64,000 bases of DNA from an uncultured Clostridia bacterium (GCA_934254725.1 CAKQLR010000003.1:18754-82753); one strand, 5' to 3'. Shown: positions 13,665-64,000, counted from the stretch's first letter. Made by a program: numbers and translations. The notes: a model not told the origin generated them from the sequence alone.

Positions 13665-13720
13665 CAAAAGAAAAGTCCCGTTTTTCGCGCATTAACGCGC
13701 GTTCAGGGCAAGGAGCTACC

Positions 13721-15160: not shown

Positions 15161-15175
15161 GACCTTAGTATGTTA

Positions 15176-18764: not shown

Positions 18765-18782
18765 AGCAATTACCCGCCTTTT

Positions 18783-32965: not shown

Positions 32966-33007
32966 TAAAACAGCTCCTTAAAACTAATGATATTTGCCCT
33001 CGTAAAC

Positions 33008-34504: not shown

Positions 34505-34586
34505 TTTTTCTTCTCCTTATGAAAAAATATATTTTCTTTTCCCTTTCGAGGAAAATTAACTTGATTAGCCGACGTTTTCAGACGTA

Positions 34587-36257: not shown

Positions 36258-36261
36258 ATAA

Positions 36262-37914: not shown

Positions 37915-37936
37915 ATAAATCTACACCTTATCTTTT

Positions 37937-38812
37937 TTATTTAATTCCGGAAATACTCATGGACGCCAGGAAATATTTCTGGCATACAAAATACGTAGCG
38001 ACCACGGGAACCGTAATGGATATAAGAGCCGCCGCGCGAAGATAAGAGTCTCCGCTGCCCTCGAACTGAGGATAAAAGCTCATAAGTTTCAACTGAATTA
38101 CAAATTTGGACGGGTCGTGCGTAACAATCAACGGCCAAAGATACTCGTTCCATTTAGCGGTAAAGGTCATAATGCAAAACGTAAGTATGACCGAACGGCA
38201 CATGGGAAAAGCAATCTGGAAAATTTTTCTCAACTCGCCCGCGCCGTCTATATCTGCGGCTTCGAGGCACGCGTCCGGTATCTGATGCATAAACTGACGG
38301 AACATAAACACGCCGAATACGTTGATAAATCCGGGAAGAAATACGCCCGTCAATGTCTCGGTAACGCCCAAGCCGTCAACGATGATATAAATCGGAATGA
38401 GCAATACTTCGCCCGGGACCATCATCGAAGCCAATATAAGCCAGAACCAGACGTCCCTTCCTTTAAATCTCAGTTTGCCGAAGCAATAGCCGAGAACAAA
38501 CGCAAACACCAGACTTACGACGAGACTTACGACAACTACAACTATACTGTTGAAAAAGCCTTGCCATAAATCGCCTACTCTGAAAGCTTCCGCGTAGTTG
38601 GAAAAATGAATGCCGCCTTGCGGCCACCAATAAATCTTTCCGGGTTTTCCTATAAAATCGAGCGAAGTCAGCGACGACGCCAACTGCAACCAATACGGAA
38701 AAACCAGCAAAAAGCCCATAAACGCCATAAATAAGACGCAAAAAGTAACGACAAGCGCGTTAACGACCTTTTTTCTCTTACTTACAAGAGGTTTCAATTC
38801 GGTATTATTCAT
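37937..38812 (-). CDS. Carbohydrate ABC transporter permease (CUT1 family, MalG-like)
   Basis: 6-TM protein with the EAA loop EAADIDGAGELRKIFQIAFP. Confidence 0.9.
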   Translation of the reverse strand: MNNTELKPLVSKRKKVVNALVVTFCVLFMAFMGFLLVFPYWLQLASSLTSLDFIGKPGKIYWWPQGGIHFSNYAEAFRVGDLWQGFFNSIVVVVVSLVVSLVFAFVLGYCFGKLRFKGRDVWFWLILASMMVPGEVLLIPIYIIVDGLGVTETLTGVFLPGFINVFGVFMFRQFMHQIPDACLEAADIDGAGELRKIFQIAFPMCRSVILTFCIMTFTAKWNEYLWPLIVTHDPSKFVIQLKLMSFYPQFEGSGDSYLRAAALISITVPVVATYFVCQKYFLASMSISGIK

Positions 38813-39728
38813 ACGAAACCTCCTTATTGTTGAGCTTCATCTGTATGACAGAAAATATCATGACTACTAAAAACAATACCATGGCATAAGCGCTCGCCAC
38901 GCCCATTTTGGAGCGCTCGAAGGCAAGATAGTAAACGTACAGCACCGAAGACTGCGTTTTGCTTCCGCCGCTGGTAATAAGTTGCATGGGACCTATTACC
39001 TTAAAGCCGTTGATTATAGAATTGACAAGATTTAACGTAATGGTATTTGAAATCAAAGGGAGCGTAATGTAAATATACGCCTTTAATTTGCTGTCCGTTT
39101 CGAGGCTTGCGGCTTCAAGGTAAGTATCGGGTACGCCGATAATAGCCGCATAATAAATAAGCAACCCGCCGCTGAACCCTAAAAATACGGACGTAAACAT
39201 TAAAGCAAAAAGCGCATATTTTTCTTCGTTAAAATAGTTTATCGGGTTATCCAACGCGCCTATCGACATAAGCAGCGAATTAACTATGCCCGATTCGCTG
39301 CCGTCGAAAAGCAACTGAATAATGTTGCTCCCGACAACTGCTGAAACAAGTGCCGGCCAATACAGCACGGCAAGAAAAATCTTTTTACCGCGGGGTATTC
39401 TGGTAAGCATAAAGCCGAGTAACAACCCGAAAAAATTGCTCCCTATAGTGGTAAAAAACGCCCACTTGACGGATACCCAGAGCGACGACCAGAATTCGGC
39501 GTCGTACAGTTCGTGGTTTTTATCGAAAATTCTTATGTAATTATCAAAAGTAAAGCGAGTAATGTTGGCAACGCTCGTCTTCATATTCGTAAAGCTTATA
39601 ACTATAGCGAATATGAAGGCGGCGGCAAAAAACACAAGCCAGAAAATCAAGGGTATCGCCATCAGGGAATACGCCTTTATTTCATTGCGATATTTAAATT
39701 TGACAGAATTATTTTTTTTATTAGTCAC
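38805..39728 (-). CDS. Carbohydrate ABC transporter permease (CUT1 family, MalF-like)
   Basis: EAA loop EAASLETDSKLKAYIYITLP. The ORF track starts at a TTG at 39761, inside the SBP gene. I prefer the GTG at 39728, immediately after the SBP stop. The start is uncertain. Confidence 0.85.
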   Translation of the reverse strand: MTNKKNNSVKFKYRNEIKAYSLMAIPLIFWLVFFAAAFIFAIVISFTNMKTSVANITRFTFDNYIRIFDKNHELYDAEFWSSLWVSVKWAFFTTIGSNFFGLLLGFMLTRIPRGKKIFLAVLYWPALVSAVVGSNIIQLLFDGSESGIVNSLLMSIGALDNPINYFNEEKYALFALMFTSVFLGFSGGLLIYYAAIIGVPDTYLEAASLETDSKLKAYIYITLPLISNTITLNLVNSIINGFKVIGPMQLITSGGSKTQSSVLYVYYLAFERSKMGVASAYAMVLFLVVMIFSVIQMKLNNKEVSYE

Positions 39729-39729
39729 T

Positions 39730-41127
39730 TTAAGAATACAACTCCTTGAGATCTTTGGCAAGAGTCGTCTGAATTTTATCCAAGGTCTTAGCTTCCCCGT
39801 TCTTGAGCCATGCGGTCATAAGTCCGCTAAGCTCTTTCTGCGTCTGGCTCCATATGCCCGTTCCGGGACGAACCACCGCTTTTTCCAACGACGCGCCGAA
39901 CATCTGCCAGCTTTCGCTGTTATAATAATCGCTTTCCGCAAACGCCGCTTTTAAAGCGGGCATCTGATAAGAACCCTCTGCATACGCAAGCATGGAAGTC
40001 TGATCTTTTATCAAATATTTCATAAAGTCCAAAGCCAAAGCCTTGTTTTTGCTGCGACGGCTCATAGCCAAAGAATAAAGCCCCGCGCAGGATTTCGCTT
40101 CGTAACCGTCTTTAAGCGTTATAAGGTCCGCCCACCCCGCATTAAATATGCTTTCTACGGTAGGATCTTTACCGAGCTGATCATACTTTGCAATTTTCCA
40201 GCAACCTTCTTCGATAAATAAAACTTTACCTTCTTCGAACTTTGCTTCTTCAAACGTAGAAGATACAACACCGGTAGCGCCGAGTTGTTTTACTATCGTC
40301 TCAAGCTCTGCATTTGCAGCCTTGTCTGCAGGATATTCGTCGTTGCAAATAGTAACTTTGGAGAAATCGTCGTTCATAACAGAACCGCCGAGTCTTGCAA
40401 GCATGGAAACGTACTGCATAGAAGCAACGGACGCGTATTCGTTACCGGAAGGAATTGTCCACGCGCCTATCTGCTTTCCTGTCGTTCTGTTGTAATCGTT
40501 AACCTGTTTGCACCACCACAACATGGAATATTCTTCCTGCTCGCTGCCTAATTTTGTGGGAACACAGGCGTCGATATCGGTATATTGAATTCCGTTAGTG
40601 TCCAGAACGTTTTTCATCAGAACACGGTTATAAGCCAAACCGAACGTATTTGCCGCATAAGGAAGCGCATAAACGTCGCCGCCGTAATATCCCGTGTTAT
40701 ATAAAGAGGAATACAACGTATCTTTTACTTCGCTTAACAATTCGGGAGCAATACTGCTGAGGTCTGCAAGTGCCGGATCTCCGAAATAATAAGCAAGTAC
40801 CTGAATGTACACGCTATCCAACAATAATAAGTCGGGTTCGTTCTTTTTGCCGACCACCATAGCGTAGCTGGTGTAAAAATTATCGGCAGGCTGCGGCGTT
40901 AAGTTGATGGTAACGCCTTCGTGCTCTTGTTCGTAAGCTTTCTTGGCTTGCTTAGCGGCTTCGAACTGTGCGTCCGCGCCCGGCCACCATACGGTAATAG
41001 ACCCGCTTAACGGAGCGTCGGGGTTAACACTGTCGCCGCTGTTGTCCGATCCGCCGCATGCGCAGAAGGCGCATGCGAGCACTGCTATGAGTACACCTGT
41101 CACAAATTTTTTCAAAAATCCAGACAT
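39730..41127 (-). CDS. ABC transporter extracellular solute-binding lipoprotein (family 1)
   Basis: 465 aa with a lipobox (LACAFCACG). It is the first gene of the operon, with GGAG 9 nt upstream of the ATG. Confidence 0.85.
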   Translation of the reverse strand: MSGFLKKFVTGVLIAVLACAFCACGGSDNSGDSVNPDAPLSGSITVWWPGADAQFEAAKQAKKAYEQEHEGVTINLTPQPADNFYTSYAMVVGKKNEPDLLLLDSVYIQVLAYYFGDPALADLSSIAPELLSEVKDTLYSSLYNTGYYGGDVYALPYAANTFGLAYNRVLMKNVLDTNGIQYTDIDACVPTKLGSEQEEYSMLWWCKQVNDYNRTTGKQIGAWTIPSGNEYASVASMQYVSMLARLGGSVMNDDFSKVTICNDEYPADKAANAELETIVKQLGATGVVSSTFEEAKFEEGKVLFIEEGCWKIAKYDQLGKDPTVESIFNAGWADLITLKDGYEAKSCAGLYSLAMSRRSKNKALALDFMKYLIKDQTSMLAYAEGSYQMPALKAAFAESDYYNSESWQMFGASLEKAVVRPGTGIWSQTQKELSGLMTAWLKNGEAKTLDKIQTTLAKDLKELYS

Positions 41128-51475: not shown

Positions 51476-51504
51476 TTGACAAAGCCATTTTCCCGTGTTA
51501 CAAT
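51476..51504 (+). promoter_or_regulatory. Sigma-A promoter of locus B
   Basis: TTGACA (51476-51481), a 17-nt spacer and TACAAT (51499-51504). This predicts a ~125-nt leader before the ATG at 51638. Confidence 0.65.
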
Positions 51505-51637
51505 ACTTTTATAAACGAAGGATTCCCGGATATCAAAAAACGCTTCTTTCCTTAAAAAGAAAAAAAGTTGAAATTTTCAGCAAAAAAATACATGATTGAA
51601 GTTTCGGGAATATCATAAAATAGACAAGGGAGGTTTT

Positions 51638-53047
51638 ATGAAAAAGATTATTATGTTTCTTTTATCCGCAGTGCTTGCTGCAAGTTTTACGGCATGTAAA
51701 GCCGCCGCCGAGCCTCAATACTCTTCGGACGAAAAATTCGACATCGGCATGTGGGTAGGCGTTTCCGACAAAATCGTTGAATATGACGATTGGGGGAAGA
51801 AAACAGGCAAAGAAAGAATGCTTACCGACGACGAATTCCTTGAAAAATATCAATGGATTGCGGAAGCGGGCTTTACAATTGCTTACCCCGGTTACGAATA
51901 TATGCTTTGGGCTACCGAAAATTATAACAAAAAATGCCTTAAAGCCGCTCACGAGGTCGGCATAAAGCAAATTATAACCATTTCTTCGCTCAATGAATAT
52001 ATTAAAAAGCTTGACGTATTACTTAAATCCGGCGTCGAAACGGAAGAGCAGGCTATAAAAAAGATTCAGGATTTCGCCAAACCGTACCTCGAAAGCGAGT
52101 ATTCGGACGCATTCTACGGCTGCTTTATAGGCGACGAACCTGCCGCGGACAAATTCGATATGCACTCGGTAGCGTACGAAGTATTCCACAAAGCTCTGCC
52201 CGATTTGTGTTACTACGTAAACCTGTTCCCCGTTATCGCAACGGGCGCGCAGCTCGGCGGGGTTACGCCCATCAGCTATGAAACGTACATCGCGCAGTAC
52301 TTAAATAAGATAAAAACGCCGTATATAAGTTACGACCACTATCCCCTTTATAAGACGCGTTCGTATTATCTCGAAGCAAGCTTCCTGCAGAATATGCAAA
52401 TAATAAAAAAGGCGGTAAAAGAAGAGGGCGAGAACAGAAAAATATGGACGTTCCTACAGAGTATATCTTTCGGTAAAAACCGCAAACTCGAAAGCGCGGG
52501 CGACGCGACCTTCCAAGCGTACAGCTTCCTCGCTTACGGCGGAGACGGAATACAGTGGTTCTGTTTCTGCTGCCCGCCGCCCAACGACGGCTCCACAAAT
52601 TTCGGCAACGACGCGCTTTTGGACAGAGATTTACAGAAAACAGACGTTTACGATTACGTAAAACAAGCGAATTTAAACGTTCAGGCGATAATGCCTTATT
52701 ATAAAAACTTCACATGGAAAGGCGTAATGACATCTTCCGCAGACGGCGGCGAGGGCAACTTCGAAAGAATAGAGCGCCTTGAAAGCACCAAAACGCTTAA
52801 AAAAGTTTCAGGAACGGAAGACGTTCTCGTAGGCGTATTCGAAGATAAAGACGGCAGAGAAGGTTTCATGGCCGTAAACTTTACCGACCCGGGAAGAAAA
52901 CTCGACAACGAAGTTACGCTCAAACTGAACGGAGTAAGCAACGCGATAGTGGTGCTCAACGGAGAAAAAACGGTAATGCCCGTAAAACGCGGAGAGTTGA
53001 AATTATCCCTTAAATCGGGCGAAGGCTGTTTCGTAATACCTTATTAA
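51638..53047 (+). CDS. Secreted lipoprotein, putative TIM-barrel glycosidase-like protein of an unrecognised family
   Basis: The ORF track starts at a TTG at 51596; I prefer the ATG at 51638 (MKKIIMFLLSAVLAASFTAC), which has AGGGAGG upstream. The GCFIGDEP block resembles the clan GH-A NEP acid/base motif. It is a paralog of 59328..60779. Confidence 0.75.
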   Translation: MKKIIMFLLSAVLAASFTACKAAAEPQYSSDEKFDIGMWVGVSDKIVEYDDWGKKTGKERMLTDDEFLEKYQWIAEAGFTIAYPGYEYMLWATENYNKKCLKAAHEVGIKQIITISSLNEYIKKLDVLLKSGVETEEQAIKKIQDFAKPYLESEYSDAFYGCFIGDEPAADKFDMHSVAYEVFHKALPDLCYYVNLFPVIATGAQLGGVTPISYETYIAQYLNKIKTPYISYDHYPLYKTRSYYLEASFLQNMQIIKKAVKEEGENRKIWTFLQSISFGKNRKLESAGDATFQAYSFLAYGGDGIQWFCFCCPPPNDGSTNFGNDALLDRDLQKTDVYDYVKQANLNVQAIMPYYKNFTWKGVMTSSADGGEGNFERIERLESTKTLKKVSGTEDVLVGVFEDKDGREGFMAVNFTDPGRKLDNEVTLKLNGVSNAIVVLNGEKTVMPVKRGELKLSLKSGEGCFVIPY

Positions 53048-53069
53048 AATATTATCGGAGGAAAAAACG

Positions 53070-54527
53070 ATGAAAAGTAAAAGATTTTTGACAATGCTTC
53101 TTCTCGTTGTAATGACGTTCGCCTTTTTCGGCATGAACGCGTGCAAGAAGGATGAAAAACCGAGCGGTAATTACGGCAACGTTACTTTCGTAGAAAAAAC
53201 AGGCGAAATGTACCTTAAAGACAAAGAAGGCAAAACGCCCGTAAAAATTACATATTCCGAAGGCAACGGAAGCGAATGGATAAGAACCCTTTCCGCAAAA
53301 TTCCTCGAAGACGAAGCGGGTAAAAACTACTATATCGTTCTCACCGTAGACGAGCAGGCTACAACGGCTATGAGTTCCAAACTCGAAGACGGCGCAAACC
53401 TCGACGATATATATTATCTTTTAGCTTCTCCGTGGCAGAGCTATGCGGCTCTTGACCAGCTCGAATGCCTTGACGATCTTTATAACTCCACCCCCGACGG
53501 CGAAACCAGAACCATTCTCGACAAAATAACGGGCAGCTGGAAAACTTACGGTCAGGCGTACAACAAAAACGAACTGCACTATTATATCTTTCCGAACAAT
53601 ACACCCGTAACGGGTCTTGTTTACAACAAGACGATGTTCGACGAATACGGCTGGGAAGTTCCCGAGACCACCGCGGAACTCGAAGCGCTCTGCAAAAAAA
53701 TAGTTGCCGATACCAAAGGCAAAGTAGCGCCCATCGTATACCCCGGAAAGGTTGCCGGCGGTTACTGGGATTTCATCGGCACGACCTGGTGGCTTCAGGT
53801 TTCCGGCGAAGAAAAGATGAACGAGTTTATGCAGTTCGAGTCCGCCGAAGTATTCAACAGCGACAAAAAATCCTCGCCGTCCTACGGTAAACTCGAAATG
53901 CTCGAAACATTCCAGAACATCTTCGCAAAAAACAAAGACTCGTTCATTTATAAAATGTCCGGTTCTCTCGACCACTATCAGGCACAGCAAACGTTCGGCG
54001 CGGGGCTTGCCGCTATGATCCCCAACGGAAGCTGGATACAGAACGAATCCGGCGAGGACATCGAAGACGAAATAAGAATGATGCCCGTCCCCTATATGGA
54101 GAACGCGATTAAGGACGAAAACGGAAAGAGAATAGCTTACAACTACAGCGGTCAGCCCTCTTTCACTATTATCCCCAAGAATGCCGAAAACAAAGAAGGC
54201 GCGAAGGCTTTCCTTAAATTCATATCAAAAGACGACAGCCTTAAAACTTACACGCAGGTTACCGGCACGCCAATGCCTTTCGATTACGACATTTCTTCGC
54301 TTGAATTCAACGGCTTCCAGCAGTCCTGCGTGGACATCTGGGCAAACTCCGTAACCTGGTTCGAAGATTCCAAAAGTCCTTTATGGACAGGACTTAAACT
54401 CAGAAAATTCAATGGAGCGAATCCCTACACGAACATTATAATAAACTATCCTTCCGTAACCGCGGAAAGCTGGTGCGCAGCCGAATATGCGAGCGTAAAA
54501 GGCTCCTGGTCGGGCTTTAACGTTTAA
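53070..54527 (+). CDS. ABC transporter extracellular solute-binding lipoprotein (family 1)
   Basis: 485 aa with lipobox FFGMNAC. Size and composition are typical of CUT1 SBPs. Confidence 0.85.
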   Translation: MKSKRFLTMLLLVVMTFAFFGMNACKKDEKPSGNYGNVTFVEKTGEMYLKDKEGKTPVKITYSEGNGSEWIRTLSAKFLEDEAGKNYYIVLTVDEQATTAMSSKLEDGANLDDIYYLLASPWQSYAALDQLECLDDLYNSTPDGETRTILDKITGSWKTYGQAYNKNELHYYIFPNNTPVTGLVYNKTMFDEYGWEVPETTAELEALCKKIVADTKGKVAPIVYPGKVAGGYWDFIGTTWWLQVSGEEKMNEFMQFESAEVFNSDKKSSPSYGKLEMLETFQNIFAKNKDSFIYKMSGSLDHYQAQQTFGAGLAAMIPNGSWIQNESGEDIEDEIRMMPVPYMENAIKDENGKRIAYNYSGQPSFTIIPKNAENKEGAKAFLKFISKDDSLKTYTQVTGTPMPFDYDISSLEFNGFQQSCVDIWANSVTWFEDSKSPLWTGLKLRKFNGANPYTNIIINYPSVTAESWCAAEYASVKGSWSGFNV

Positions 54528-54541
54528 ATCCGTAAGTACAA

Positions 54542-55501
54542 ATGGAAAAAACTTTAACCTTAGCAACAAATACGCCTAAGCGTAAAAAGAGGAAGAAAAG
54601 CGCTAACGAGATAGCCTTTATGATCACCATGATGGCTATCCCCGTTATCCATTTTTGCGTGTTCTGGCTATATATAAACGTGGATTCGATTTTCCTGTCA
54701 TTCAAGGCTTTCGATATGAAAACCGGCGTATGGAAATGGACGGGATTCTCCAACTACGTCGAGCTGTACCGGCAGTTCACCAAAGAGGGCAGCGTTTTAC
54801 CAAGGGCATTGTTCAACTCGTTTTCGGTATTCCTGTGGAACGATTTTATAATAGTTCCCCTATCGCTGTTCTGTTCGTACATGCTGTACAAAAAGATGCC
54901 TTTAAACAACGTTTTCAAGGTTATATTCTTTTTGCCCTCTATAATTTCCGTAAGCGTTCTTACGCTTGCTTACTCGTATATGCTTAACTCTTCCATTCCC
55001 GACTTTCTGGAAAAAATAGGGCTTGAAGACCTCGTTCCGTACGGCGGGTTCTTTGCAAACCCCGCTACCGCATGGTGGACGATTCTCATATACGGGCTTT
55101 GGTCGGGCATAGGCGGCAACGTAGTGCTTATTTCCGGTGCGATGGCGCGAATTCCCGACGAGGTTATAGAAGCGGGTAAAATAGACGGTTTAGGGCTTAT
55201 GGGCGAATTTTTCCACGTAATAATTCCGCTTATCGGCTCTACGTTAGCCACTCTGCTGCTTATGGGCACGGCGGTAATATTCAGTTACTTCCTGCAACCG
55301 AAGCTTATTCTCGGCGACGCGGCGGAGTCCGCCAAGGGCTTTACGATTGGTTTGTATATAGTAAACAACGTGCGCGACAACGGCACGCCTCAAATGGCTA
55401 TGGGCGCTACGATCGGCGTCATATGCGCTATTATCGGTACGCCGTTAGTTATTTTCACGAGAAATATTCTCGATAAGCTCTTCCCGGCTTACGAGTATTA
55501 A
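54542..55501 (+). CDS. Carbohydrate ABC transporter permease (MalF-like)
   Basis: EAA loop EAGKIDGLGLMGEFFHVIIP and 6 TM segments. Confidence 0.9.
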   Translation: MEKTLTLATNTPKRKKRKKSANEIAFMITMMAIPVIHFCVFWLYINVDSIFLSFKAFDMKTGVWKWTGFSNYVELYRQFTKEGSVLPRALFNSFSVFLWNDFIIVPLSLFCSYMLYKKMPLNNVFKVIFFLPSIISVSVLTLAYSYMLNSSIPDFLEKIGLEDLVPYGGFFANPATAWWTILIYGLWSGIGGNVVLISGAMARIPDEVIEAGKIDGLGLMGEFFHVIIPLIGSTLATLLLMGTAVIFSYFLQPKLILGDAAESAKGFTIGLYIVNNVRDNGTPQMAMGATIGVICAIIGTPLVIFTRNILDKLFPAYEY

Positions 55502-55544
55502 AAAAATAAAACAGGCACCGCCTGAATAAAAAAGGAGAAAAAAG

Positions 55545-58316
55545 ATGAGAAAAAGTTTACTCTTCACGTTTGTGATCGCGTTGACGGTTGCACTTCTCTG
55601 CTTTTCCATGGTGACGGCTTCCGCCGCTACGGTTGAAAGCAAGCCCGCCGGCGACGGTCTCATCACAAGCGAAAACGAAATCAACTCCACAAACTTCAAA
55701 GTTCTGGAGCAGGACGATGGCGACGCGGACGCGTACAAAACCGTTAAAGTCACCGATAACGTTCTTCGCTACAACAACGGCGAATGGCAGGAAATGATTG
55801 TAGGTACGCCCGTTTCCAAAGAACTTATGGCTAAAGAGAACGCCAAAGTTACGCTTACTTACAACATCATAGGTTTGAATGCGGACGGCGCTCAGCTTAT
55901 GATAGAGCCGGGTGCAAAGAACTCCGACGAAATTTTTAATTACGGTTATGTTCTTACCGGCAGCGATAACGGTATTGCAGTAGTTCCCGCTTACAGAACA
56001 AAAGCAGCAACGACCGATCCCGTTTCCAAGCTTATCGCTCACCACGGCGGGGACACACAATACGATATTCCCGTTCAGTGGCAGGCTTATTCCTGGAGCT
56101 GCGGAACCTTTAAAAACTACATTAATGCATATAAAAACGCAACGTTCAAAATCGAAATGGCCGTAAACGAAGGCGGTTGGGTAGACGTTACTCTTATAAG
56201 CGGTTTCTTCTATGAATGGCAGAGATGGACTAACGGCGGCGCGACCATAACCAACTGGGCACCCTACGACGGAACGCACGATTTCTACACCAACGTATGG
56301 GCGCGTTATTGCGACGGTATGGTTCTCGACGGAGCTAAGCTCGAAGTTTCCTACACCGAAGACGGCGAAGCTAAAAACACAGTTCTTTTCAACAGCAATT
56401 TCGATGACGAAAGCAAAGTAATAACGACTCAGGGCGCTACGGCGGAAAGCGGCAAGTTTATCGCGCGCGGCGTTGCATACGGACCTAACGGTTCCAGCGG
56501 ACTTCGCGTTACCAATCCTGCGGAAAACACCGGTATAATCACGAGAGCCGCTCTCGTTGCGGATACTTCTCTTTCCAGGAATTTCGAGCTTAACGCGAAC
56601 GTTATTCTCGAAAGCATGACGGAAGGTCAGAAAGTAGGTTTCGGCTTCGGATTCGAAGACTCGAGAGACCTTACGAAAAATCACAAATACCTCTATTTAA
56701 CCGTGAAAAACGGCACTATTATGTTCGGCGGCGAAGAAGTTACCGCTGACGGCACCATCTTTATTCTTGCCGAATACGAAGTAACCGGCGCGGCTCTAAA
56801 TCAACCCGTAACCGTTCAGCTTGCGGGCGCGGGCGCAGACCTTAAAATTAACGTCGGCGACGCTGCGGAAGCTACTATAGAGGATTTCGACCTTAACGGT
56901 TTCTTTGCTATCTTCCATAAAGGCACGGGTGACATAACTTATATGCTCAAAGATAACCTCACCATGACGGGTTATAAATTTACGGAGAACGAAGAAGGCG
57001 CAGAAGCCGTTACTTCCAACTTCAACGGAAATTACCTCAACACGAACAAATTCCAGATGTCTTCGCACATCGCTCCCGATATCCACATGGTTAAAACGGA
57101 AAATTCCCACGAGCTTACCGGTCTTACCCCCGAAAACGGCAAACTCGGCTTCTACGGAACTTCCACCGGAACACGTATTTTAACCACCAAGAAATATGCG
57201 GACTTCGTAATGCAGTTCGATTATATTTCTCTTCCCGCACAGCAGCGCGGCGGACTCGTACTCCCCGGCAACAGACCTTCTCCCCTCTTCCTCGTATTCG
57301 GCATGAAAGAGGGCGGCTTGCCAATCGACGACGCTTCCGTTTACGCTATCGGTCTTTACGAAGGTATAGCAACGGAATTCTACGGCTTTAACGAAACGGT
57401 TATCTCTTCTCTCGGTATGGCAAATACCTGCGGAATGAATACCGTAGGCATTGCCAAAGTAAAAAAAGCGACCGAAAAATCCGATATATCCATTCCCTAC
57501 TACGCTTCAGGCAAAGGCTACGACGCTTCTGCGGAAAACAATAACGTAGCCGCTTGGTACGACCCCGATCCGCAAGCGGAAGGCACCGTTTACAGCCTTT
57601 ACAACAAGGTGACGCGCATTAAACTCGTTTGCGTAGACAACAACGTAAAATTGTTCTTTACGGAAGTAGCTTCCGACGGTACTACTGGCAATTATATCGA
57701 AGTAGCTTCCTTTAAAGCTCAGGACGCGGAAGGATACCTCGGCATCGCTACCGATTCCCCCGCTTTCTTTGAAATCGACAACCTTGCTATCACCCCCGTA
57801 ACCAAAGAACAGGTTCTTACGTTTGTTGCTTCCGGCGAGGCTCTCACCGCTTCTGTCGTAGCAGACGTGGCACCCGAAGATATGGACGAAGATTTAGCGC
57901 CCACTCCGCTTGCGAAACCCGTTATCGAAGTAAACGCTAAAACCAAAAAGGCTACCTGGCAAGCTGTCGAAGGAGCTAAAGATTACACCGTAACACTTAA
58001 GAAAGGCACCGAAACAATCCTTGAAAGCACCATAACCGCTACGGAAATAGATCTTTCTTCCGTCACCGAACTCGGCGAATACAAGCTCACCGTCGTTGCC
58101 AACCCCGCAAACGAAAACGTTCACCTCTCTTCGAGAAACACCGTTGACTATAAGGTAGAAGCTCAGGGCAGCGACACTTCGGGCGGCACTACCGGCGATA
58201 CCTCGGGTGATACCGACGACGGCGGTTGCTTCAGCGGAATAGGCGTTACGCTTTTCGCAGGTATATTCGCTATAGCATTCGCGGGCGCTAAGCTCAGGAA
58301 AAAACAGGACAGATAA
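55545..58316 (+). CDS. Large cell-surface protein with multiple ConA/LamG-like beta-sandwich modules, an FN3-like module and a Gly-Cys C-terminal anchor signal
   Basis: 923 aa with a signal peptide (MVTASAAT). Several modules end in DN/DDF-type strands (FFEIDNLAITPV). The FN3-like block is KATWQAVEGAKDYTVTLKKG. The tail is GGCFSGIGVTLFAGIFAIAFAGAKLRKKQDR. Confidence 0.85.
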   Translation: MRKSLLFTFVIALTVALLCFSMVTASAATVESKPAGDGLITSENEINSTNFKVLEQDDGDADAYKTVKVTDNVLRYNNGEWQEMIVGTPVSKELMAKENAKVTLTYNIIGLNADGAQLMIEPGAKNSDEIFNYGYVLTGSDNGIAVVPAYRTKAATTDPVSKLIAHHGGDTQYDIPVQWQAYSWSCGTFKNYINAYKNATFKIEMAVNEGGWVDVTLISGFFYEWQRWTNGGATITNWAPYDGTHDFYTNVWARYCDGMVLDGAKLEVSYTEDGEAKNTVLFNSNFDDESKVITTQGATAESGKFIARGVAYGPNGSSGLRVTNPAENTGIITRAALVADTSLSRNFELNANVILESMTEGQKVGFGFGFEDSRDLTKNHKYLYLTVKNGTIMFGGEEVTADGTIFILAEYEVTGAALNQPVTVQLAGAGADLKINVGDAAEATIEDFDLNGFFAIFHKGTGDITYMLKDNLTMTGYKFTENEEGAEAVTSNFNGNYLNTNKFQMSSHIAPDIHMVKTENSHELTGLTPENGKLGFYGTSTGTRILTTKKYADFVMQFDYISLPAQQRGGLVLPGNRPSPLFLVFGMKEGGLPIDDASVYAIGLYEGIATEFYGFNETVISSLGMANTCGMNTVGIAKVKKATEKSDISIPYYASGKGYDASAENNNVAAWYDPDPQAEGTVYSLYNKVTRIKLVCVDNNVKLFFTEVASDGTTGNYIEVASFKAQDAEGYLGIATDSPAFFEIDNLAITPVTKEQVLTFVASGEALTASVVADVAPEDMDEDLAPTPLAKPVIEVNAKTKKATWQAVEGAKDYTVTLKKGTETILESTITATEIDLSSVTELGEYKLTVVANPANENVHLSSRNTVDYKVEAQGSDTSGGTTGDTSGDTDDGGCFSGIGVTLFAGIFAIAFAGAKLRKKQDR

Positions 58317-58366
58317 TCAGGTAAAATTATTATCGGTAAACAAACAATTAAACGAAATTTGTTTAA

Positions 58367-58388
58367 GGGGAGGAGAACTCTCCTCCCC
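58367..58388 (+). other. Very stable intra-operon hairpin
   Basis: GGGGAGGAG-AACT-CTCCTCCCC, a perfect 9-bp G/C-rich stem, 51 nt after the surface-protein stop and 17 nt before the permease ATG. There is no adjacent U-tract. Confidence 0.7.
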
Positions 58389-58404
58389 GAAACAAGAGGT
58401 TTTT

Positions 58405-59259
58405 ATGAGAAGAAATAAGATGAAAATGCAAAAAAAAGACGCGATTTTTATGTGGATAATGTTCGTATTATTCGCGATATACGCAATATCCTTGCTTTTT
58501 CCGTTCCTTTGGTGTCTGAACAACTCGTTCAAAACAAAAAAAGATTTCTTCTACAACGTCAACGGGTTGCCTACGGAATTCGTCCTCGATAACTGGATTA
58601 ACAGCTTCTCTCTTTCAGCGGACAGGGTTTCCATTCCGATGATGTATTTCAACAGTATATTTTTAACAATAGGCGCAACGTTCATTGCTCTGATGGCAAA
58701 CTCCGCCACGGCATACGTCATCACAAAATACGATTTTAAAGGAAAAGAACTATTCTATTCGTTCGCGGTCATCGTTATGATGATACCCACGATGGGTTCT
58801 ATGGCTTCCACTTATAAAATGTACAACACCATAGGGCTTACAAATACTTATACGGGCTATTTCATTTTTGCCTGCGGCGGGTTCGGAACGTATTTCCTTA
58901 TTATGTACGGGTTTTATAAAAACCTGTCCTCCACTTACTCGGAAGCCGCTCAGATAGACGGAGCGGGACACTTCCGCATTTACTTCACTATAATTCTCCC
59001 TATGGCAATGCCAATTCTCTTTTCGCTCGGCATACTTCTCGCCATAGGCTATTGGAACGATTATTTTACCGTATACATGTACTTGCCGCAAAAGGCGACC
59101 ATTGCTTACGGATTACAGCGTATTTCCGATAAAAACAAAAATAATCTTCCGCAGGTTTTCGCCGCGATGTTGTTTTCAATGCTGCCCGTTCTGATCGTAT
59201 TCAGCATTTTCCAGAAAACGATTATGACAAATACCACCGTCGGCGGCATCAAAGGTTAA
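58405..59259 (+). CDS. Carbohydrate ABC transporter permease (MalG-like)
   Basis: EAA loop EAAQIDGAGHFRIYFTIILP and 6 TM segments. Confidence 0.9.
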   Translation: MRRNKMKMQKKDAIFMWIMFVLFAIYAISLLFPFLWCLNNSFKTKKDFFYNVNGLPTEFVLDNWINSFSLSADRVSIPMMYFNSIFLTIGATFIALMANSATAYVITKYDFKGKELFYSFAVIVMMIPTMGSMASTYKMYNTIGLTNTYTGYFIFACGGFGTYFLIMYGFYKNLSSTYSEAAQIDGAGHFRIYFTIILPMAMPILFSLGILLAIGYWNDYFTVYMYLPQKATIAYGLQRISDKNKNNLPQVFAAMLFSMLPVLIVFSIFQKTIMTNTTVGGIKG

Positions 59260-59327
59260 ATTAAAAAGTAATATAAATTCGGAAAAAACAGGATAAACTC
59301 CTTTTAAAATAAAACCGGAGGGGAAAA

Positions 59328-60779
59328 ATGAATAAATACATTAAAAAAGTTATAAATCTGCTTTTATGCTTTATAATGTCTCTTGCCTTTTGCGGGTGTA
59401 ACGTCACGGGGGATTCCGGTTCCGACAGCGGGAATTCGTCCTCCGGCTCAGGGGAAGATAAGATAACTTATTCCACGTACGGTTCGTATTGGTTTAACAA
59501 TCACGGATATAAAGTTATGCCCGTGGGCGCGTACAATTCCCTTCCTCCCGCAAAATACGGGTACACGAAGAATTTCCTTACCGACGAAAACATTTTCATA
59601 GATTATGCCGAAGCAGGCGTAAACACGCTTATGGGGCTTACCGATTACGTGGGGCTTAATCAGCAGGACGTACTTACCGCTCTCGATTACGCGTACGAAT
59701 ACGGTATGGCTTACCTTCTCGCGTACTCGGGCGCTGCCGACGCGAATAATTCCGCAACGATTAAAAGCACACTTTCAAGGGTTATGTACCACGACTCCTT
59801 TGCGGGAATAATGCTTTCGGACGAACCCGGCAAAGTTATGTTTGAAAAGCTTGCAACCGCCCGCAACGCCTTTTCTATCGCGTTATCGGACGTTGACGGC
59901 AAACTATATCACGTAAACCTCTTCCCGACGTATGCAAGCTCGAAACAACTTTGGTTCAGATCTTACGCCTCTGACGACGTTCTGCCCGTAGAAAGCTATT
60001 CTTACGAACAATACCTGAAAGATTACATGCAAACTTATAATCCGCAGGTGCTTTCCTACGACTTCTATCCCATAACGGGCAGCTTCCCGAAGCTGGCAAA
60101 CGGATATTTTGAAAATATGTCCGTTATCCGCAGTACCGCGGCGGAAGCGAATATCCCGTTCTGGACGTACATTCAGACTTGTTCTTTCGCCAACGGTCAG
60201 CGCCTTTCCACGCAAGCGGATTTAAACTGGAACGTAAACACCTGCCTTGCATACGGCGCGAAAGGCATACAGTACTTCTGCGGAGTAAACCCGATGGCTT
60301 CGGGCGGAGAGCATTTTGACGGCTCTATGTTCGACATTAACGGGAACAAAACGGAAATGTACGACAGAGTTAAAAATATAAATAAAACCATAGCCGCGGT
60401 GGACGAATACCTTATGTGCGCAAAGAGCAAGGGCGTCATCGTGGCGGGCGTTATGCCCCAACTTAACGGCGGCGAAAACAGAATGTCTATCCCCGAAAAA
60501 GATTTGCTTTCTTCTTTCAACGAACTAAGCTCCGTCGTTTCTAATCACGCGCTTGTAGGGTGCTTCGATTACAACGGCAAGACGGCTTTATACGTCGTGA
60601 ACAACGCCGTTGCGGACGATACCGTAGAAAACTTTACGGCAAATACGGACGTAACGCTTACGTTCGGCAAGAGCGTTTCGGGCACGGTAATAACCGCCGC
60701 AAAAAAAACGGATTTCAACGGCACTACTCTCACCGAAAATCTGGACGCGGGCGAAGCGTTCCTTGTAGTATTAAACTAA
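59328..60779 (+). CDS. Secreted lipoprotein, paralog of 51638..53047 (putative glycosidase-like)
   Basis: Lipobox LAFCGC. Blocks shared with the paralog, written as this protein vs the paralog: GIMLSDEP vs GCFIGDEP; VLSYDFYPIT vs YISYDHYPLY; FWTYIQTCSF vs IWTFLQSISF; CLAYGAKGIQYFCG vs FLAYGGDGIQWFCF. Confidence 0.75.
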   Translation: MNKYIKKVINLLLCFIMSLAFCGCNVTGDSGSDSGNSSSGSGEDKITYSTYGSYWFNNHGYKVMPVGAYNSLPPAKYGYTKNFLTDENIFIDYAEAGVNTLMGLTDYVGLNQQDVLTALDYAYEYGMAYLLAYSGAADANNSATIKSTLSRVMYHDSFAGIMLSDEPGKVMFEKLATARNAFSIALSDVDGKLYHVNLFPTYASSKQLWFRSYASDDVLPVESYSYEQYLKDYMQTYNPQVLSYDFYPITGSFPKLANGYFENMSVIRSTAAEANIPFWTYIQTCSFANGQRLSTQADLNWNVNTCLAYGAKGIQYFCGVNPMASGGEHFDGSMFDINGNKTEMYDRVKNINKTIAAVDEYLMCAKSKGVIVAGVMPQLNGGENRMSIPEKDLLSSFNELSSVVSNHALVGCFDYNGKTALYVVNNAVADDTVENFTANTDVTLTFGKSVSGTVITAAKKTDFNGTTLTENLDAGEAFLVVLN

Positions 60780-60797
60780 AAAACAAAGGGGTAAAAC

Positions 60798-62018
60798 ATG
60801 ATGAAAAAGATTGTTTCAAACATAGCGCTGTTTTGCTTAATTGCCTGTTTATGCGCGTTTTACGGGGTATTTCCTGTTAAGACGTCGGCGAACGGCGGAG
60901 AAAAACTTGCCGATTTCGGCGACGATTTCGAAAGCTATCAAACGGGCAATTATATAGAAAATACCCCCACCTTCTCCAAAAAATGGACGAACAACTATCT
61001 TGCCGGCGGAGAGGCTCAGGGAATGGACGCACATCTTATAAAAATAGCCAAACCGGAATACGAAAACGGTTCTTCGGGCAATAAGGTTCTGCACCTGAAC
61101 AACGCCGCCACCGGGCTTGATTCCTTCTTTCATATAGGTCCCGCAGGCGACTACAGGGTAAAGAATTTTACCGTTTCGTTCAGGGTTAAGTTCCTGACAG
61201 AAAGCGTCGGCGAGCGCAGTTGGGTAGGTATTTCGTTCAGAAAGAAAGCCGAAAGCGCGTATACCGGGACGAACAATCTTTTGTTCACGATACAGCGTTA
61301 CGTCAGCGGAAACAAGATAACGGCGCACTCCTACGCAATATTCGACGGCGGTTCGGCAAACGACATATCGGACGTTTCGATGAAGTCCTTATTCGGTGAT
61401 AAACTCGATTATTCTTCGTCCGTATACACCGTTCCCGACGGGCAAAGCAACGCCGACCTCCCCTGGGTGGAATATAAACTTACGGCCAACGGAAATCATT
61501 ATCAGACTTTCGTAAACGGCATTAACGTCGTCGATTGTACTTTCGATATACCATCTTACGATTATTTCGGCTATCTGAGCCTGAATTGCTGTACTGCAAA
61601 CGTTCTTGTGGATGATTTTGCCTTGCAGGTTCAGGACGAAACTCTGCCCCCTGTAATCGGTAAATTAAACGCGCCCGTTCTTACCCTTAACGAAGAGGAA
61701 AAGTCCGTTTCGTGGGAAGCGATAGACGGGGCTAATCTCTACACCGTTTATCTTGACGGCACAGCCGTAAAAACTTTTGCGAAAACAAAATACACGTTTG
61801 AAAGCGATTTGCCCGCAGGCGAATATAAAATTGCGGTAAAAGCCGTTTCGGAAGACGCCTTCGTCGTTCGCGACAGCGATTTATCCGAAGAAATAACTTA
61901 CACGGTAAAGGCGGCAGGCGGAGAAAAGAAAGGCTGTAAAGGTTCTTTGCTTTCCCCCGTTTCGCTCGGCGCGGTCGTTTTATTAAGCTGTGCAACCCTA
62001 AAAAAGAAACGCAAATAA
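60798..62018 (+). CDS. Cell-surface protein with a ConA/LamG-like module, an FN3-like module and a Gly-Cys C-terminal anchor signal
   Basis: 406 aa with a signal peptide. VLVDDFALQV is a jelly-roll end strand. The FN3-like block is SVSWEAIDGANLYTVYLDG...GEYKIAVKA. The tail is KGCKGSLLSPVSLGAVVLLSCATLKKKRK. Confidence 0.85.
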   Translation: MMKKIVSNIALFCLIACLCAFYGVFPVKTSANGGEKLADFGDDFESYQTGNYIENTPTFSKKWTNNYLAGGEAQGMDAHLIKIAKPEYENGSSGNKVLHLNNAATGLDSFFHIGPAGDYRVKNFTVSFRVKFLTESVGERSWVGISFRKKAESAYTGTNNLLFTIQRYVSGNKITAHSYAIFDGGSANDISDVSMKSLFGDKLDYSSSVYTVPDGQSNADLPWVEYKLTANGNHYQTFVNGINVVDCTFDIPSYDYFGYLSLNCCTANVLVDDFALQVQDETLPPVIGKLNAPVLTLNEEEKSVSWEAIDGANLYTVYLDGTAVKTFAKTKYTFESDLPAGEYKIAVKAVSEDAFVVRDSDLSEEITYTVKAAGGEKKGCKGSLLSPVSLGAVVLLSCATLKKKRK

Positions 62019-62049
62019 CGATTGATTCCTCCTCTTGTCGCGTTTCTTA

Positions 62050-62097
62050 TTGACTATTTGCGGATTTTGGATTAAAATGTTATTCAAAACATTTTAA
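62050..62097 (+). promoter_or_regulatory. Promoter of the ROK regulator gene overlapped by a perfect 10+10 bp palindrome (candidate operator)
   Basis: TTGACT (62050-62055), 17 nt, TAAAAT (62073-62078). The palindrome TTAAAATGTT-attcaa-AACATTTTAA spans 62072-62097. Confidence 0.6.
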
Positions 62098-62119
62098 AAA
62101 CATTATTATCGGTGGGAAT

Positions 62120-63301
62120 ATGCAGGTAAGAAATCAATCTTATTTAAGACGTAAAAACAAAAACAGTATACTTGAAATACTCAGAACAAAAACTCAAAGC
62201 TACTCCGACATCGCGCGCGAGCTGAAACTAAGCAACACCGCCGTATCTAAAATCGTGGACGATCTTATCGAACAGGATTTAGTGTACAGGGAAAGCGACG
62301 CCAAAGGCAGAACGGGCATAAATTTATCCATAAACGAAAATTACGGGTATATTGTGGCAATCGACCTTTCACGCTGGCAAATAGTAATAAGCGCCGCGAA
62401 TTTTTCGAGCGAAATTCTCGAAACCGTTTATCTCGAGGGCATAAACTTCAGAAAGAGCGATCTTGAATTGATAGTAAACGCCGTACGAATGATTACGGAG
62501 AGTAAAAAACTCAAAGGTTTAAAACTTCGCTGTATCTCCATTGCCACACCGGGAAAAATAGACAAGGAAAGCGGAGAGTTTATCCTCAACCCTCGTTTCA
62601 GAGAACTCGGGGCCATCTCTTTAAAAACGCTTTTCGAAAAGGAATTCGGTTGTCTCGTCGTTTTAAAGAACGACATCAACCTTGCGCTCGCGGCAGAAAA
62701 AACGTACGGACAAACCTTGAGCGAAACGGTTAACGCGTTGATGCTTCACATAGACGTAGGCGTTGGCGCCGCGCTTCTTATCGACGGCAAAGTTTATGAG
62801 GGCAGCCACGGATTCGCCGGCGAAATAGGCTACTTTAAAGTCAATATGCTCCTCGACGAAAACAACTACGGCAACCTGAATTTCGGCAACTACTTCGACT
62901 CGACTTCGCTGTTCAGCTCCCTTTCGATAATAAAAAGAGAACTGAGCCTCGGCAGAAAAAGCGTTATTTCGGACTGGCTGAAAAAACGCGGGCAGAGCTG
63001 GGACGACGCGACGATCGCGGATATGATAAAAGCGTATAACGAAAACGACGAACTTACCGTAACCGTTCTTCACTCGGCGGCGAGGGTTATCGGGAACTTT
63101 GCCGTTTGCATTGCGGAGTTACTCGACGTAGACGCCATTATTCTCAACGGTTCGGTTTCGGAGTTCGGCGAAAGATATTTAAATTACATCTCCGCTTTTA
63201 CCAAAGAGTACAGAGTGGTATATTCCGAATTAAAAGAAAAAGCACCCACCATGGGTGCGATAAACGCGGGTATCCTGTCCGTTTACGACAAGATACTTTA
63301 A
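62120..63301 (+). CDS. ROK family transcriptional regulator (NagC/XylR-like)
   Basis: 393 aa with an N-terminal wHTH (SYSDIARELKLSNTAVSKIVDDL) and a sugar-kinase-like fold with ROK-type Gly-rich blocks (GFAGEIGY). Confidence 0.85.
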   Translation: MQVRNQSYLRRKNKNSILEILRTKTQSYSDIARELKLSNTAVSKIVDDLIEQDLVYRESDAKGRTGINLSINENYGYIVAIDLSRWQIVISAANFSSEILETVYLEGINFRKSDLELIVNAVRMITESKKLKGLKLRCISIATPGKIDKESGEFILNPRFRELGAISLKTLFEKEFGCLVVLKNDINLALAAEKTYGQTLSETVNALMLHIDVGVGAALLIDGKVYEGSHGFAGEIGYFKVNMLLDENNYGNLNFGNYFDSTSLFSSLSIIKRELSLGRKSVISDWLKKRGQSWDDATIADMIKAYNENDELTVTVLHSAARVIGNFAVCIAELLDVDAIILNGSVSEFGERYLNYISAFTKEYRVVYSELKEKAPTMGAINAGILSVYDKIL

Positions 63302-63311
63302 GAGATTTTAT

Positions 63312-64000
63312 ATGAATGTAACGGTTGATTTCGCCGCTTCCGAATTAAAGCGGTATTTAAACTTAATAACGGGAACAAACGGCGAAATAGCTCTTTTTGT
63401 TCGGGACGAAAGCGAGAACACAGGCGATATATTCGCGGAAAAGTGTACGGTCTGCGTACGCTCGGGCAAGGGAAGCATATCGGCAAACCGTCCGCGCGCG
63501 CTTCTTATCGGCGTGTACGAATTTTTAAGACGGCTCGGTTGTCGTTTTACCCGCCCCGGGAAAGACGGCGAAGTGATCCCCGAAATGAAATTAGAAGACG
63601 TTTCCGCGGAGTTCGAATTCATTCCAGAAAACCGCCACAGGGGCATTACAATCGAGGGCGCGGTCAGCTTCGAAAACATTTCGGAAACGATAGACTGGTC
63701 GGTGAAGAACGGCTTTAACAGTTATTTCACGCAGTTTATGAACTCGTACGAATTTTTCAACCGTTGGTACGAGCACATCGGAAACCCGTTCCTTAAGCCC
63801 GAAAAACTTGAAAAATCGACCGTAGAAGAATATATCAAAAAAATTGTGGCGGAACTGAAAAAACGCGATATGATCTACCACGCCGTAGGTCACGGTTGGA
63901 CGCCCGCCGCACTCGGAATAAACTGTAACGGCTGGAGCGATAACGACTATACGCTTCCGCCCGAAAAGAAAAATTTACTTGCCGAAATAGGCGGAAAACG
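63312..64000 (+). CDS. DUF4838-like / GH20-fold-like protein, N-terminal 229 aa; the 3' end runs off the window
   Basis: Absent from the ORF track. My own translation is open from the ATG at 63312 to the window end: MNVTVDFAASELKRYL...RALLIGVYEFLRRLGCRFTRPG...NRHRGITIEGA. There is no signal peptide. The family call is from motif recall only. Confidence 0.55.
   Translation, partial: MNVTVDFAASELKRYLNLITGTNGEIALFVRDESENTGDIFAEKCTVCVRSGKGSISANRPRALLIGVYEFLRRLGCRFTRPGKDGEVIPEMKLEDVSAEFEFIPENRHRGITIEGAVSFENISETIDWSVKNGFNSYFTQFMNSYEFFNRWYEHIGNPFLKPEKLEKSTVEEYIKKIVAELKKRDMIYHAVGHGWTPAALGINCNGWSDNDYTLPPEKKNLLAEIGGK

Follow-up and report, generated by a model that had tools for sequence, protein, structure and literature searches.

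A conserved, probable glycan utilisation locus of Gram-positive bacteria with a split permease pair and an uncharacterised GH42-related protein family

Genes of locus B and the split permease pair

We describe here a gene cluster, which we call locus B, at the downstream end of a 64,000-nucleotide stretch of DNA from an uncultured Clostridia bacterium (GCA_934254725.1 CAKQLR010000003.1:18754-82753); this whole stretch is referred to as the window. Locus B is a real, well-conserved and largely undescribed variant of the Gram-positive glycan utilisation locus. Our open reading frame (ORF) map of 51.5-64 kb shows, on the plus strand, a lipoprotein gene (X1), genes for the substrate-binding protein (SBP) and permease 1 of an ATP-binding cassette (ABC) transporter, a gene for a 923-aa surface protein, and then genes for permease 2, a second lipoprotein (X2), a 406-aa surface protein, a ROK-family regulator and a DUF4838-like protein. 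A preliminary description of this DNA had given the same order, and all of its ORFs were found in their places. The features of the locus are the following.

51476..51504, plus strand: sigma-70 promoter-like site TTGACA-17-TACAAT, extended by a TG and lying upstream of X1; it fits the consensus at 11 of 12 positions and is the top site of the region, as a consensus match only
51638..53047, plus strand: X1, a lipoprotein (signal ...SFTAC) with a predicted TIM barrel and C-terminal beta-sandwich, of an uncharacterised GH42-related family; D166-E167-P168 at 52133-52141, Q274 at 52457-52459
53070..54527, plus strand: CUT1-type sugar ABC substrate-binding lipoprotein, the SBP (SBP_bac_1/8, E ~1e-18)
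54542..55501, plus strand: ABC permease 1, MalF/UgpA-like (BPD_transp_1 in Pfam; NCBIfam)
55545..58316, plus strand: 923-aa secreted surface protein, with about 3-4 LamG/ConA-like jelly rolls, an FN3-like module, an acidic linker and a tail of Gly-Cys, transmembrane segment and basic residues at 58224-58313
58358..58396, plus strand: intergenic hairpin between the 923-aa gene and permease 2; core GGGGAGGAG-AACT-CTCCTCCCC at 58367-58388
58405..59259, plus strand: ABC permease 2, MalG-like (BPD_transp_1; MalG in NCBIfam, E=9e-23)
59328..60779, plus strand: X2, a lipoprotein and paralog of X1; D165-E166-P167 at 59820-59828, Q283 at 60174-60176
60798..62018, plus strand: 406-aa secreted surface protein with a ConA/DUF1080-like domain (weak PF06439 match, E=3.4e-5), an FN3-like module and a Gly-Cys tail at 61932-62015
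62050..62097, plus strand: promoter-like site TTGACT-17-TAAAAT upstream of the ROK gene, overlapped by a palindrome that is a candidate ROK operator
62120..63301, plus strand: ROK-family regulator with an N-terminal winged helix-turn-helix (ROK, E=1.7e-30; MarR_2)
63312..64000, plus strand: 5' part of the gene for a 618-aa cytoplasmic DUF4838 protein, which runs off the window and was read at full length from the identical contigs L004 and L005

For X1, X2 and the 923-aa and 406-aa proteins, Pfam and NCBIfam gave nothing above threshold. The contigs L004 and L005, identical to the window, carry locus B past position 64000.

The permease genes of locus B are separated by the gene for the 923-aa protein. 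To place this arrangement, we collected 75 X-family loci from homolog contexts and one genome per GTDB species, and compared their synteny by blastp. Outside the window, 32 loci hold both permease genes, and all 32 show the order X1, SBP, permease 1, a secreted protein, permease 2 and X2 (and a 406-like protein). The X1 homologs of these split loci are between 73% and 29% identical to X1, and the loci have different flanks; in L052, with an X1 homolog of 27% identity, the gene order differs. Among the hosts are uncultured Clostridia from the gut of humans, ruminants, rabbits and chickens, Candidatus Scatosoma and the cultured Pumilibacter muris, together with Haloplasma contractile, an Acholeplasma, an Izemoplasma, Paenibacillus agaridevorans and Cohnella soli. 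The protein encoded between the permeases varies from 315 to 1575 aa, and its homology to the 923-aa protein can be detected in every lineage but the two Paenibacillaceae. The ordinary layout, with adjacent permease genes, is found in ten loci around more distant X homologs. Since the split is present in every one of the 32 loci, with adjacent pairs in the more distant X loci and in locus A (a second cluster of the window, described below), it is ancient, and it is a selectively maintained hallmark of loci of this type. The gene combination of locus B, which had been proposed to recur elsewhere, is found in at least 32 species-level genomes.

A strong hairpin after the 923-aa gene had also been pointed out, and our folding analysis agrees: the core at 58367-58388 has a 9-bp GC stem, and the hairpin has a minimum free energy of -27 kcal/mol and z=-4.1 against shuffles. 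Of 30 loci folded in 50-nt segments, 24 have a hairpin of -15 kcal/mol or stronger in the gap from the surface-protein gene to permease 2 (median -26.5 kcal/mol); each of the three remaining gaps reaches that strength in 4 to 8 of about 30 loci. This conservation suggests that the hairpin marks a transcript boundary or a stability element, and it may act within the operon on mRNA stability, by attenuation or by partial termination. No RNA family was found by Rfam over 50.7-64 kb. In 8 of 30 related loci, a strong hairpin stands right after the SBP gene, a place classically associated with raised SBP expression; the window locus has no hairpin between the SBP and permease 1 genes, where the gap is 14 nt.

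The X family and its active site

X1 and X2 share 30% identity over 338 residues (E=5e-34), and by this sequence comparison they are clear paralogs, as had been claimed; the shared blocks quoted earlier (DEP, SYDxYP, WTxxQ and AYGxxGIQxFC) are present in our alignments of the two. The AlphaFold (AF2) model of X1, built from an alignment of X1, X2 and 38 homologs (40 members), has a mean predicted local distance difference test score (pLDDT) of 95 and consists of a (beta/alpha)8 barrel at about 35-355 followed by a beta-sandwich at 359-468. Foldseek searches of this model against the PDB gave distant matches only, with template modelling (TM) scores of 0.4-0.55 at about 10% identity, to PslG (GH39), GH30, GH5, GH140, GH42, GH164, GH51 and some GH13/GH27 barrels, where GH denotes a glycoside hydrolase family; no GH20 or GH123 chain was among the top 50 matches. 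As modelled, the X fold is thus nearest to structures of clan GH-A.

Searching the PDB by sequence with X1, X2 or an X2-like paralog gave nothing useful. With a profile of the family, four GH42 beta-galactosidase chains were matched locally, and the family's 'ikDEP' was aligned to 'vnNEY' of PDB entry 9ta3 (beta-galactosidase LacZ). The GH42 model PF02449 matches 14 of the 40 aligned members weakly (best E=2.8e-8); on the window proteins themselves it stays below its cutoff, with no match to X1 and 14.2 bits for X2 against a cutoff of 21. These weak PF02449 matches, taken together with the GH42 chains matched by the profile, would make the X family a distant offshoot of GH42-like clan GH-A barrels. 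The trimerisation domain PF08532 and the C-terminal domain PF08533 have no Pfam match in X1 or X2, and PF00728 and PF13320/DUF4091 have none in X1, X2 or the 40 aligned members. Membership in GH42 itself was rejected on score, nucleophile and accessory domains. With GH42 sub-threshold, no PDB sequence match and only the distant Foldseek matches, the two proteins lie outside any characterised GH family, in keeping with the preliminary description, which could not place them.

An exhaustive profile search found 6815 representatives of the X family at 50% identity (E<=1e-3), of which 2482 remain at E<=1e-30. Cluster look-ups gave 'hypothetical protein' as the only name for its members. By its sequences, the X family is therefore large, unnamed, uncharacterised and weakly GH42-like. 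A Pfam scan of multi-domain members found only anchoring modules (SLH, Big_2 and dockerin) and no substrate-specific carbohydrate-binding module, and a tblastn search of X2 against plasmids gave no match. Many related loci have a third X paralog of about 400-415 aa without a signal peptide, in which D-E-P and the strand-7 Gln are retained (L008 17678-18883, L009 14147-15379 and L010 12340-13581; also L033 and L044-L046); these third paralogs are presumably cytoplasmic. As to the start of X1, an in-frame TTG at 51596 would lengthen it by 14 residues (51596-51637); the ATG at 51638 is preferred for its GGAGG Shine-Dalgarno sequence, its normal lipoprotein signal and the same start in public gene calls.

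In the X1 model, E167 comes directly after strand 4 (159-166) and Q274 is the last residue of strand 7 (268-274), the places of the acid/base and the nucleophile, respectively, in clan GH-A. This mapping of the nucleophile is based on the AF2 strand topology, Pfam profile coordinates and local GH42 alignments of the family profile; the fetched loci contained no true GH42 gene for a profile-profile alignment. Residues were counted over 243 X family sequences. D166-E167-P168 is present in 241 and N195 in 232, and strand-6 positions are as constant, with D233 in 240 and Y235 in 242. A D-x-Y-P block on strand 6 is found in true GH42 enzymes too, where it is not the nucleophile. Position 274 is Gln in 196 sequences, Leu in 27, Trp in 7, Ala in 6 and Cys in 4, and it is never Asp or Glu; the surrounding positions 272-275 hold no acidic residue in any of the 243. 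The acid/base-like DEP motif noticed earlier thus has its Glu where a clan GH-A barrel would have it, and the strand-7 Gln, which had been judged by eye, is borne out by both the model topology and the counts. Family-wide, the X proteins keep the putative acid/base Glu, have Asp in place of the preceding Asn, and lack a strand-7 carboxylate.

Because this Asp-Glu pair occurs without a strand-7 carboxylate, we propose that the X enzymes most likely use substrate-assisted (neighbouring-group) catalysis on a beta-linked 2-acetamido sugar. GH20 and GH84 enzymes, with an adjacent Asp-Glu pair and no enzymic nucleophile, act on 2-acetamido sugars through neighbouring-group catalysis. For GH123 and the DUF4091 groups, too, substrate-assisted catalysis with a DE motif is reported (PMC11087588). 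The pair in X is a resemblance in mechanism to the GH20/GH123 type and is not proof of it.

Surface proteins, transporter and substrate clues

The AF2 model of the 923-aa protein (pLDDT 85) is all-beta and shows several jelly rolls and an FN3-like domain (about 790-871), besides an acidic linker that is disordered and the tail. Foldseek matched it best to the DUF1080 protein BT3469, and also to laminin LG, neurexin LNS, the binding domains of botulinum toxin (BoNT Hc) and galectin, all of them binding modules of the LamG/ConA type. With 0.13 and 0.26, the TM scores are very low, and the laminin G, neurexin and toxin-binding domains reach equal scores. The 406-aa protein matches PF06439 (DUF1080) at E=3.4e-5 with 24.4 bits, below the gathering cutoff of 26.8, and its sequence search against the PDB gave nothing useful. 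The two proteins have a C-terminal FN3-like module in common (33% identity, E=4e-9), which bears out an earlier remark that they share one. A word-seeded search detects 22 homologs of the 923-aa protein. We read both as probably lectin-like, non-catalytic glycan-capture proteins rather than enzymes.

Both proteins end in a Gly-Cys tail. A scan of all ORFs found the pattern [G/S/K]-C-x-[G/S]-S, a transmembrane segment and a basic tail in exactly four window proteins, two in locus B (58224-58313 and 61932-62015, plus strand) and two in locus A (30680-34504, minus strand), so the sharing of this tail by the surface proteins of the two loci, as first described, holds. Tails of this kind are also found in related loci L006-L053. 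In the alignment of 923-aa homologs, G894 is nearly invariant and C895 is invariant. In the Clostridia loci, homologs of both surface proteins nearly always end in G-C-(G/F/K/N)-(S/G), a transmembrane helix and a basic tail, whereas those of Haloplasma, Acholeplasma, Izemoplasma and Paenibacillus have a plain transmembrane anchor without Cys; the Gly-Cys anchor is a lineage trait of these Clostridia. We compared the tails with NCBIfam, considering TIGR03901 and TIGR03382 as models of MYXO-CTERM. None of the four window tails reaches a cutoff, the only match being that of the 498-aa protein of locus A (14.2 bits against 15.85), and 3 of 10 homolog tails exceed the cutoff of 20 for TIGR03901 (L018 with 25.1, L026 with 22.5 and L053 with 22.2 bits). 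MYXO-CTERM and further tripartite signals that contain Cys have been described in Myxococcota, Proteobacteria, Synergistota and archaea, with processing of MYXO-CTERM-type signals by a CPBP-type myxosortase after presumed lipidation of the Cys; neither source mentions Bacillota (bioRxiv 10.1101/2023.06.07.544157; PMC11980579). A crude motif scan of the 64-kb window gave no convincing candidate for a CPBP-type protease. By sequence, the Gly-Cys tails look like an undescribed Clostridial relative of the MYXO-CTERM class, and they suggest that surface anchoring in Clostridia may take a route other than sortase and LPXTG.

The importer is of the CUT1 type, with a cluster-type SBP and two BPD_transp_1 permeases, one MalF-like and one MalG-like. 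Neither 51.5-64 kb, nor the 10 kb that follow on L004/L005, nor any scanned ORF of the window contains an ABC ATPase gene; the CUT1 class usually uses a shared ATPase encoded elsewhere. In NCBIfam, the SBP is weakly NgcE-like and the ROK protein NagC/Mlc-like, each far below the cutoffs, and the PDB relatives of the SBP are generic. The promoter-like site upstream of the ROK gene has its -10 element overlapped by a perfect 10-6-10 palindrome, TTAAAATGTT-ATTCAA-AACATTTTAA (62072-62097). The window has a single copy of the palindrome, against 0.05 expected by chance, and it is a candidate autoregulatory ROK operator; it is not repeated at the X1 promoter, and no operator shared by the two sites could be defined. 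Antisense to the ROK gene, a fluoride riboswitch model gives a noise-level match within it (63122-63202, minus strand; 17.9 bits against a cutoff of 34, E=0.45).

Downstream of the regulator, the full-length 618-aa protein read from L005 matches DUF4838 (PF16126) marginally, with 27.5 bits against a cutoff of 26.6; its 229-aa part inside the window has no Pfam match, and its sequence search against the PDB gave nothing useful. The next gene encodes a 688-aa SASA-type O-acetylesterase, both genes being read on L004/L005 at 11193-15176, beyond position 64000. The PDB relatives of the esterase are annotated sialate 9-O-acetylesterases and the carbohydrate esterase FI8. Because neither protein has a signal peptide, both are predicted to be cytoplasmic. 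GH163 and GH185, whose catalytic domain is DUF4838, both cleave beta-GlcNAc linkages; GH185 has a substrate-assisted mechanism, and its authors suggested a similar one for GH163 (PMC10570127). Other neighbours give clues to an N-acetylhexosamine (HexNAc) substrate: DUF4838 genes lie by the X genes in the window's own genome and in L037, L038, L044-47, L052 and L054, NagA- and NagB-like genes flank L038, and L009 and L010 have GH109-like oxidoreductase genes and a BadF-type kinase gene.

Locus A (30680-41127, minus strand) encodes an SBP, two permeases in adjacent genes, two GxGYxYP lipoproteins and two surface proteins that are paralogous over their N-terminal ~350 aa (24% identity, E=1e-10). 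Its GxGYxYP proteins (34587-37914, minus strand) have the lipoprotein signals ...FGMVAC and ...CFAGC. GxGYxYP is only a putative glycoside hydrolase class (PMC4071793). The two loci had been taken together as one recurrent modular system. The blueprint of locus B does recur; that A and B are instances of one specific system is not supported, no homologs of GxGYxYP or of the locus A surface proteins A498 and A761 being found in the 75 X-family loci. What A and B share is only a generic layout and the lineage-specific anchor, and the common parts list of importer, enzymes, surface proteins and regulator is the known general concept of the Gram-positive polysaccharide utilisation locus (PUL).

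Proposed mechanism, alternatives and comparison with known systems

On the observed architecture and its conservation, we build a model whose chemistry, substrate, hairpin role and anchor processing we infer. Putative enzymes (X1, X2 and the DUF4838 protein), an ABC system and a ROK regulator are co-located here, as in Gram-positive PULs. In our proposal, the membrane-tethered 923-aa and 406-aa proteins, judging from their LamG/ConA-like folds, would capture an extracellular glycan at the cell surface, where the lipoproteins X1 and X2, as ancient paralogs, would cut it, with the neighbouring group of a beta-linked 2-acetamido sugar taking part in catalysis, as it does in GH20, GH84 and GH123. 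The released oligosaccharides would be imported by the CUT1 transporter, powered by an ATPase encoded outside the locus, and breakdown would be completed in the cytoplasm by the GH163/GH185-type DUF4838 enzyme and the SASA-type O-acetylesterase. The ROK protein would repress the system until its effector sugar appears. The lectin gene between the permeases would be a selected arrangement that allows co-expression with the transporter and probably co-localisation, and the hairpin may set differential mRNA stability or partial termination inside the operon. We give about even chances to this reading of locus B as a conserved Gram-positive PUL with substrate-assisted X enzymes, a split-in lectin and ROK control.

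Several observations weigh against it. The hairpin at 58367-58388 is followed by no T-run and was not flagged by a terminator scan. The similarities of the SBP to NgcE and of ROK to NagC are silent on specificity. L-rhamnose isomerase, aldolase and kinase genes lie directly upstream of L044 (6022-9952), the rhamnose aldolase gene being common to L044, L046 and L051; GH78-like genes are inside L038 and L011 (in L038, the NagB/NagA-like and GH78-like neighbour genes are at 539-2484 and 17473-19518); a fucose/rhamnose-type bacterial microcompartment is beside L008 (1-9538); and one X family member has a dockerin, pointing to a non-HexNAc or mixed substrate. The substrate clues are therefore mixed between HexNAc and rhamnose or other sugars. 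As a speculation, an O-acetylated glycan with both rhamnose and HexNAc, such as a bacterial cell-wall or capsular polysaccharide, would fit both sets of clues and the wide habitats. Finally, position 289, where helix 7 starts on the catalytic face, is D in 204 and E in 31 of the 243 sequences, and this second near-invariant acid (D289) could be a relocated nucleophile or base.

This last point leads to another possibility, in which X1 and X2 are conventional retaining or inverting glycosidases whose second carboxylate now sits at D289, within the beta7-alpha7 loop, or at D233, in strand 6. The remaining parts would work as we propose, and the glycan need not hold HexNAc; it could be, for example, a rhamnose-containing O-acetylated plant or bacterial polysaccharide. 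An acidic residue at position 289 in 235 of 243 sequences and the near-constant D233 would suit this possibility, as would the rhamnose and GH78-like genes and the dockerin just mentioned, and the SASA-type esterase suits acetylated plant glycans as well. However, the D-x-Y-P block that holds D233 has, as noted above, a counterpart in true GH42 enzymes that is not the nucleophile, D289 pairs with a non-acidic residue in the alignment to the GH42 structure 5xb7, the near-invariant Asn to Asp change beside the acid/base Glu is the pattern of substrate-assisted families, and the DUF4838, NagA/NagB and GH109 neighbours indicate HexNAc. We thus hold a relocated carboxylate to be possible but somewhat unlikely. 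That the X proteins are dead, lectin-like pseudo-glycosidases, which bind the glycan while cleavage occurs elsewhere, seems to us very improbable. Such a role would account for the missing nucleophile across the family and for the position of X at the cell surface beside binding proteins; yet the near-invariance of D-E-P, N195, D233 and Y235 over thousands of clusters in three bacterial classes is what an active site would show and a decayed one would not, a cytoplasmic paralog without a signal peptide would be of no use as a pure surface binder, and without X activity the locus would have no extracellular enzyme.

The catalytic part could instead be given to the surface proteins. DUF1080 proteins act in 3-keto-glycoside pathways (PMC8121099; bioRxiv 10.1101/2024.03.25.586180), and the weak PF06439 match of the 406-aa protein, the best Foldseek match of the 923-aa protein to BT3469 and the Gfo/Idh/MocA genes adjoining L009, L010 and L038 would be consistent with the two being DUF1080-type 3-keto-glycoside hydrolases or hydratases in an oxidative, non-Koshland route with Gfo/Idh/MocA partners. 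Against this stand the sub-cutoff bit score and the very low TM scores, which binding domains equal, as well as the absence of an oxidoreductase gene from this locus; on the outer surface of a Gram-positive cell, NAD-dependent partners are unlikely too, and we give this route slight credence at most. Less credible still is that the 923-aa gene is a recent accidental insertion with its own transcription. The hairpin after the gene and a weak promoter-like match at 58306-58333 might be read in this way, but the same arrangement is kept with differing flanks in three bacterial classes, the intervening proteins are homologous across most loci, and composition shows no break across the gene. Comparative genomics, with the conserved split in 32 of 32 loci, rules out a recent strain-specific insertion.

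Returning to the proposed substrate-assisted locus, its parts have consequences beyond this genome. The X family, with at least 6800 clusters at 50% identity, lacks a model in Pfam and NCBIfam as well as a solved structure, and Clostridia of the human and animal gut commonly have it; to assign its chemistry would be to annotate thousands of gut-metagenome 'hypothetical proteins'. If the catalysis is substrate-assisted, X would show a classical Koshland scaffold changing its mechanism, and to our knowledge no switch of this kind by loss of the nucleophile is documented within clan GH-A. The permease split is a rare, deeply conserved 'wrong' order of an ABC operon, and it offers a handle on how glycan capture is coupled to uptake in Gram-positives. 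Since the cultured Pumilibacter muris CLA-AA-M08 carries the full locus (L026), these ideas can be tested experimentally. In the most far-reaching version, three linked novelties would hold jointly, which we consider unlikely: X would be a new nucleophile-less GH family of thousands of clusters, a GH42-like clan GH-A scaffold switched to substrate-assisted catalysis; the lectin would be a dedicated accessory of the importer, a tethered glycan-capture arm that works physically with the permeases and defines a new architectural class of ABC sugar importer from Clostridia to Mollicutes-like lineages; and the Gly-Cys tails would represent an unrecognised MYXO-CTERM-like lipid anchoring or sorting in monoderm Clostridia.

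Among known enzymes, GH42 beta-galactosidases resemble X, as modelled, in the (beta/alpha)8 barrel and in a Glu after strand 4 that in X is the putative acid/base, and the profile similarity is weak but repeated. They differ in having N-E-[Y/F] where X has D-E-P, a strand-7 nucleophile Glu where X has Gln, Leu or Trp, and trimerisation and C-terminal domains after the barrel where X has a single beta-sandwich. GH42 enzymes are typically cytoplasmic trimers of about 680 aa, unlike X1 and X2, which are extracellular lipoproteins of about 470 aa. The GH20, GH123 and DUF4091 groups are like X in the TIM barrel, the adjacent Asp-Glu at a strand end and the lack of an enzymic nucleophile, and they are often surface or secreted enzymes acting on HexNAc glycans; X, however, has no sequence or profile match to GH20, GH123 or DUF4091, and the GH123 type has an N-terminal sandwich and a DUF4091 pillar in a different domain order.

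For the tails, the likeness to MYXO-CTERM lies in the G-C-(G)-(S/C), the transmembrane helix and the basic cluster at the C-terminus of Sec-secreted surface proteins, and the difference lies in the hosts, here monoderm Clostridia without an outer membrane or a type II secretion system. As a whole, locus B is like the Gram-positive PULs built on CUT1 importers, which combine extracellular GH-like enzymes, an SBP-dependent importer, a regulator and cytoplasmic finishing enzymes with an ATPase encoded elsewhere. It differs from them in its undescribed enzyme family, in a Cys-containing C-terminal signal in place of LPXTG or SLH anchors, and in the large surface-protein gene, with a hairpin after it, that always parts the two permease genes.

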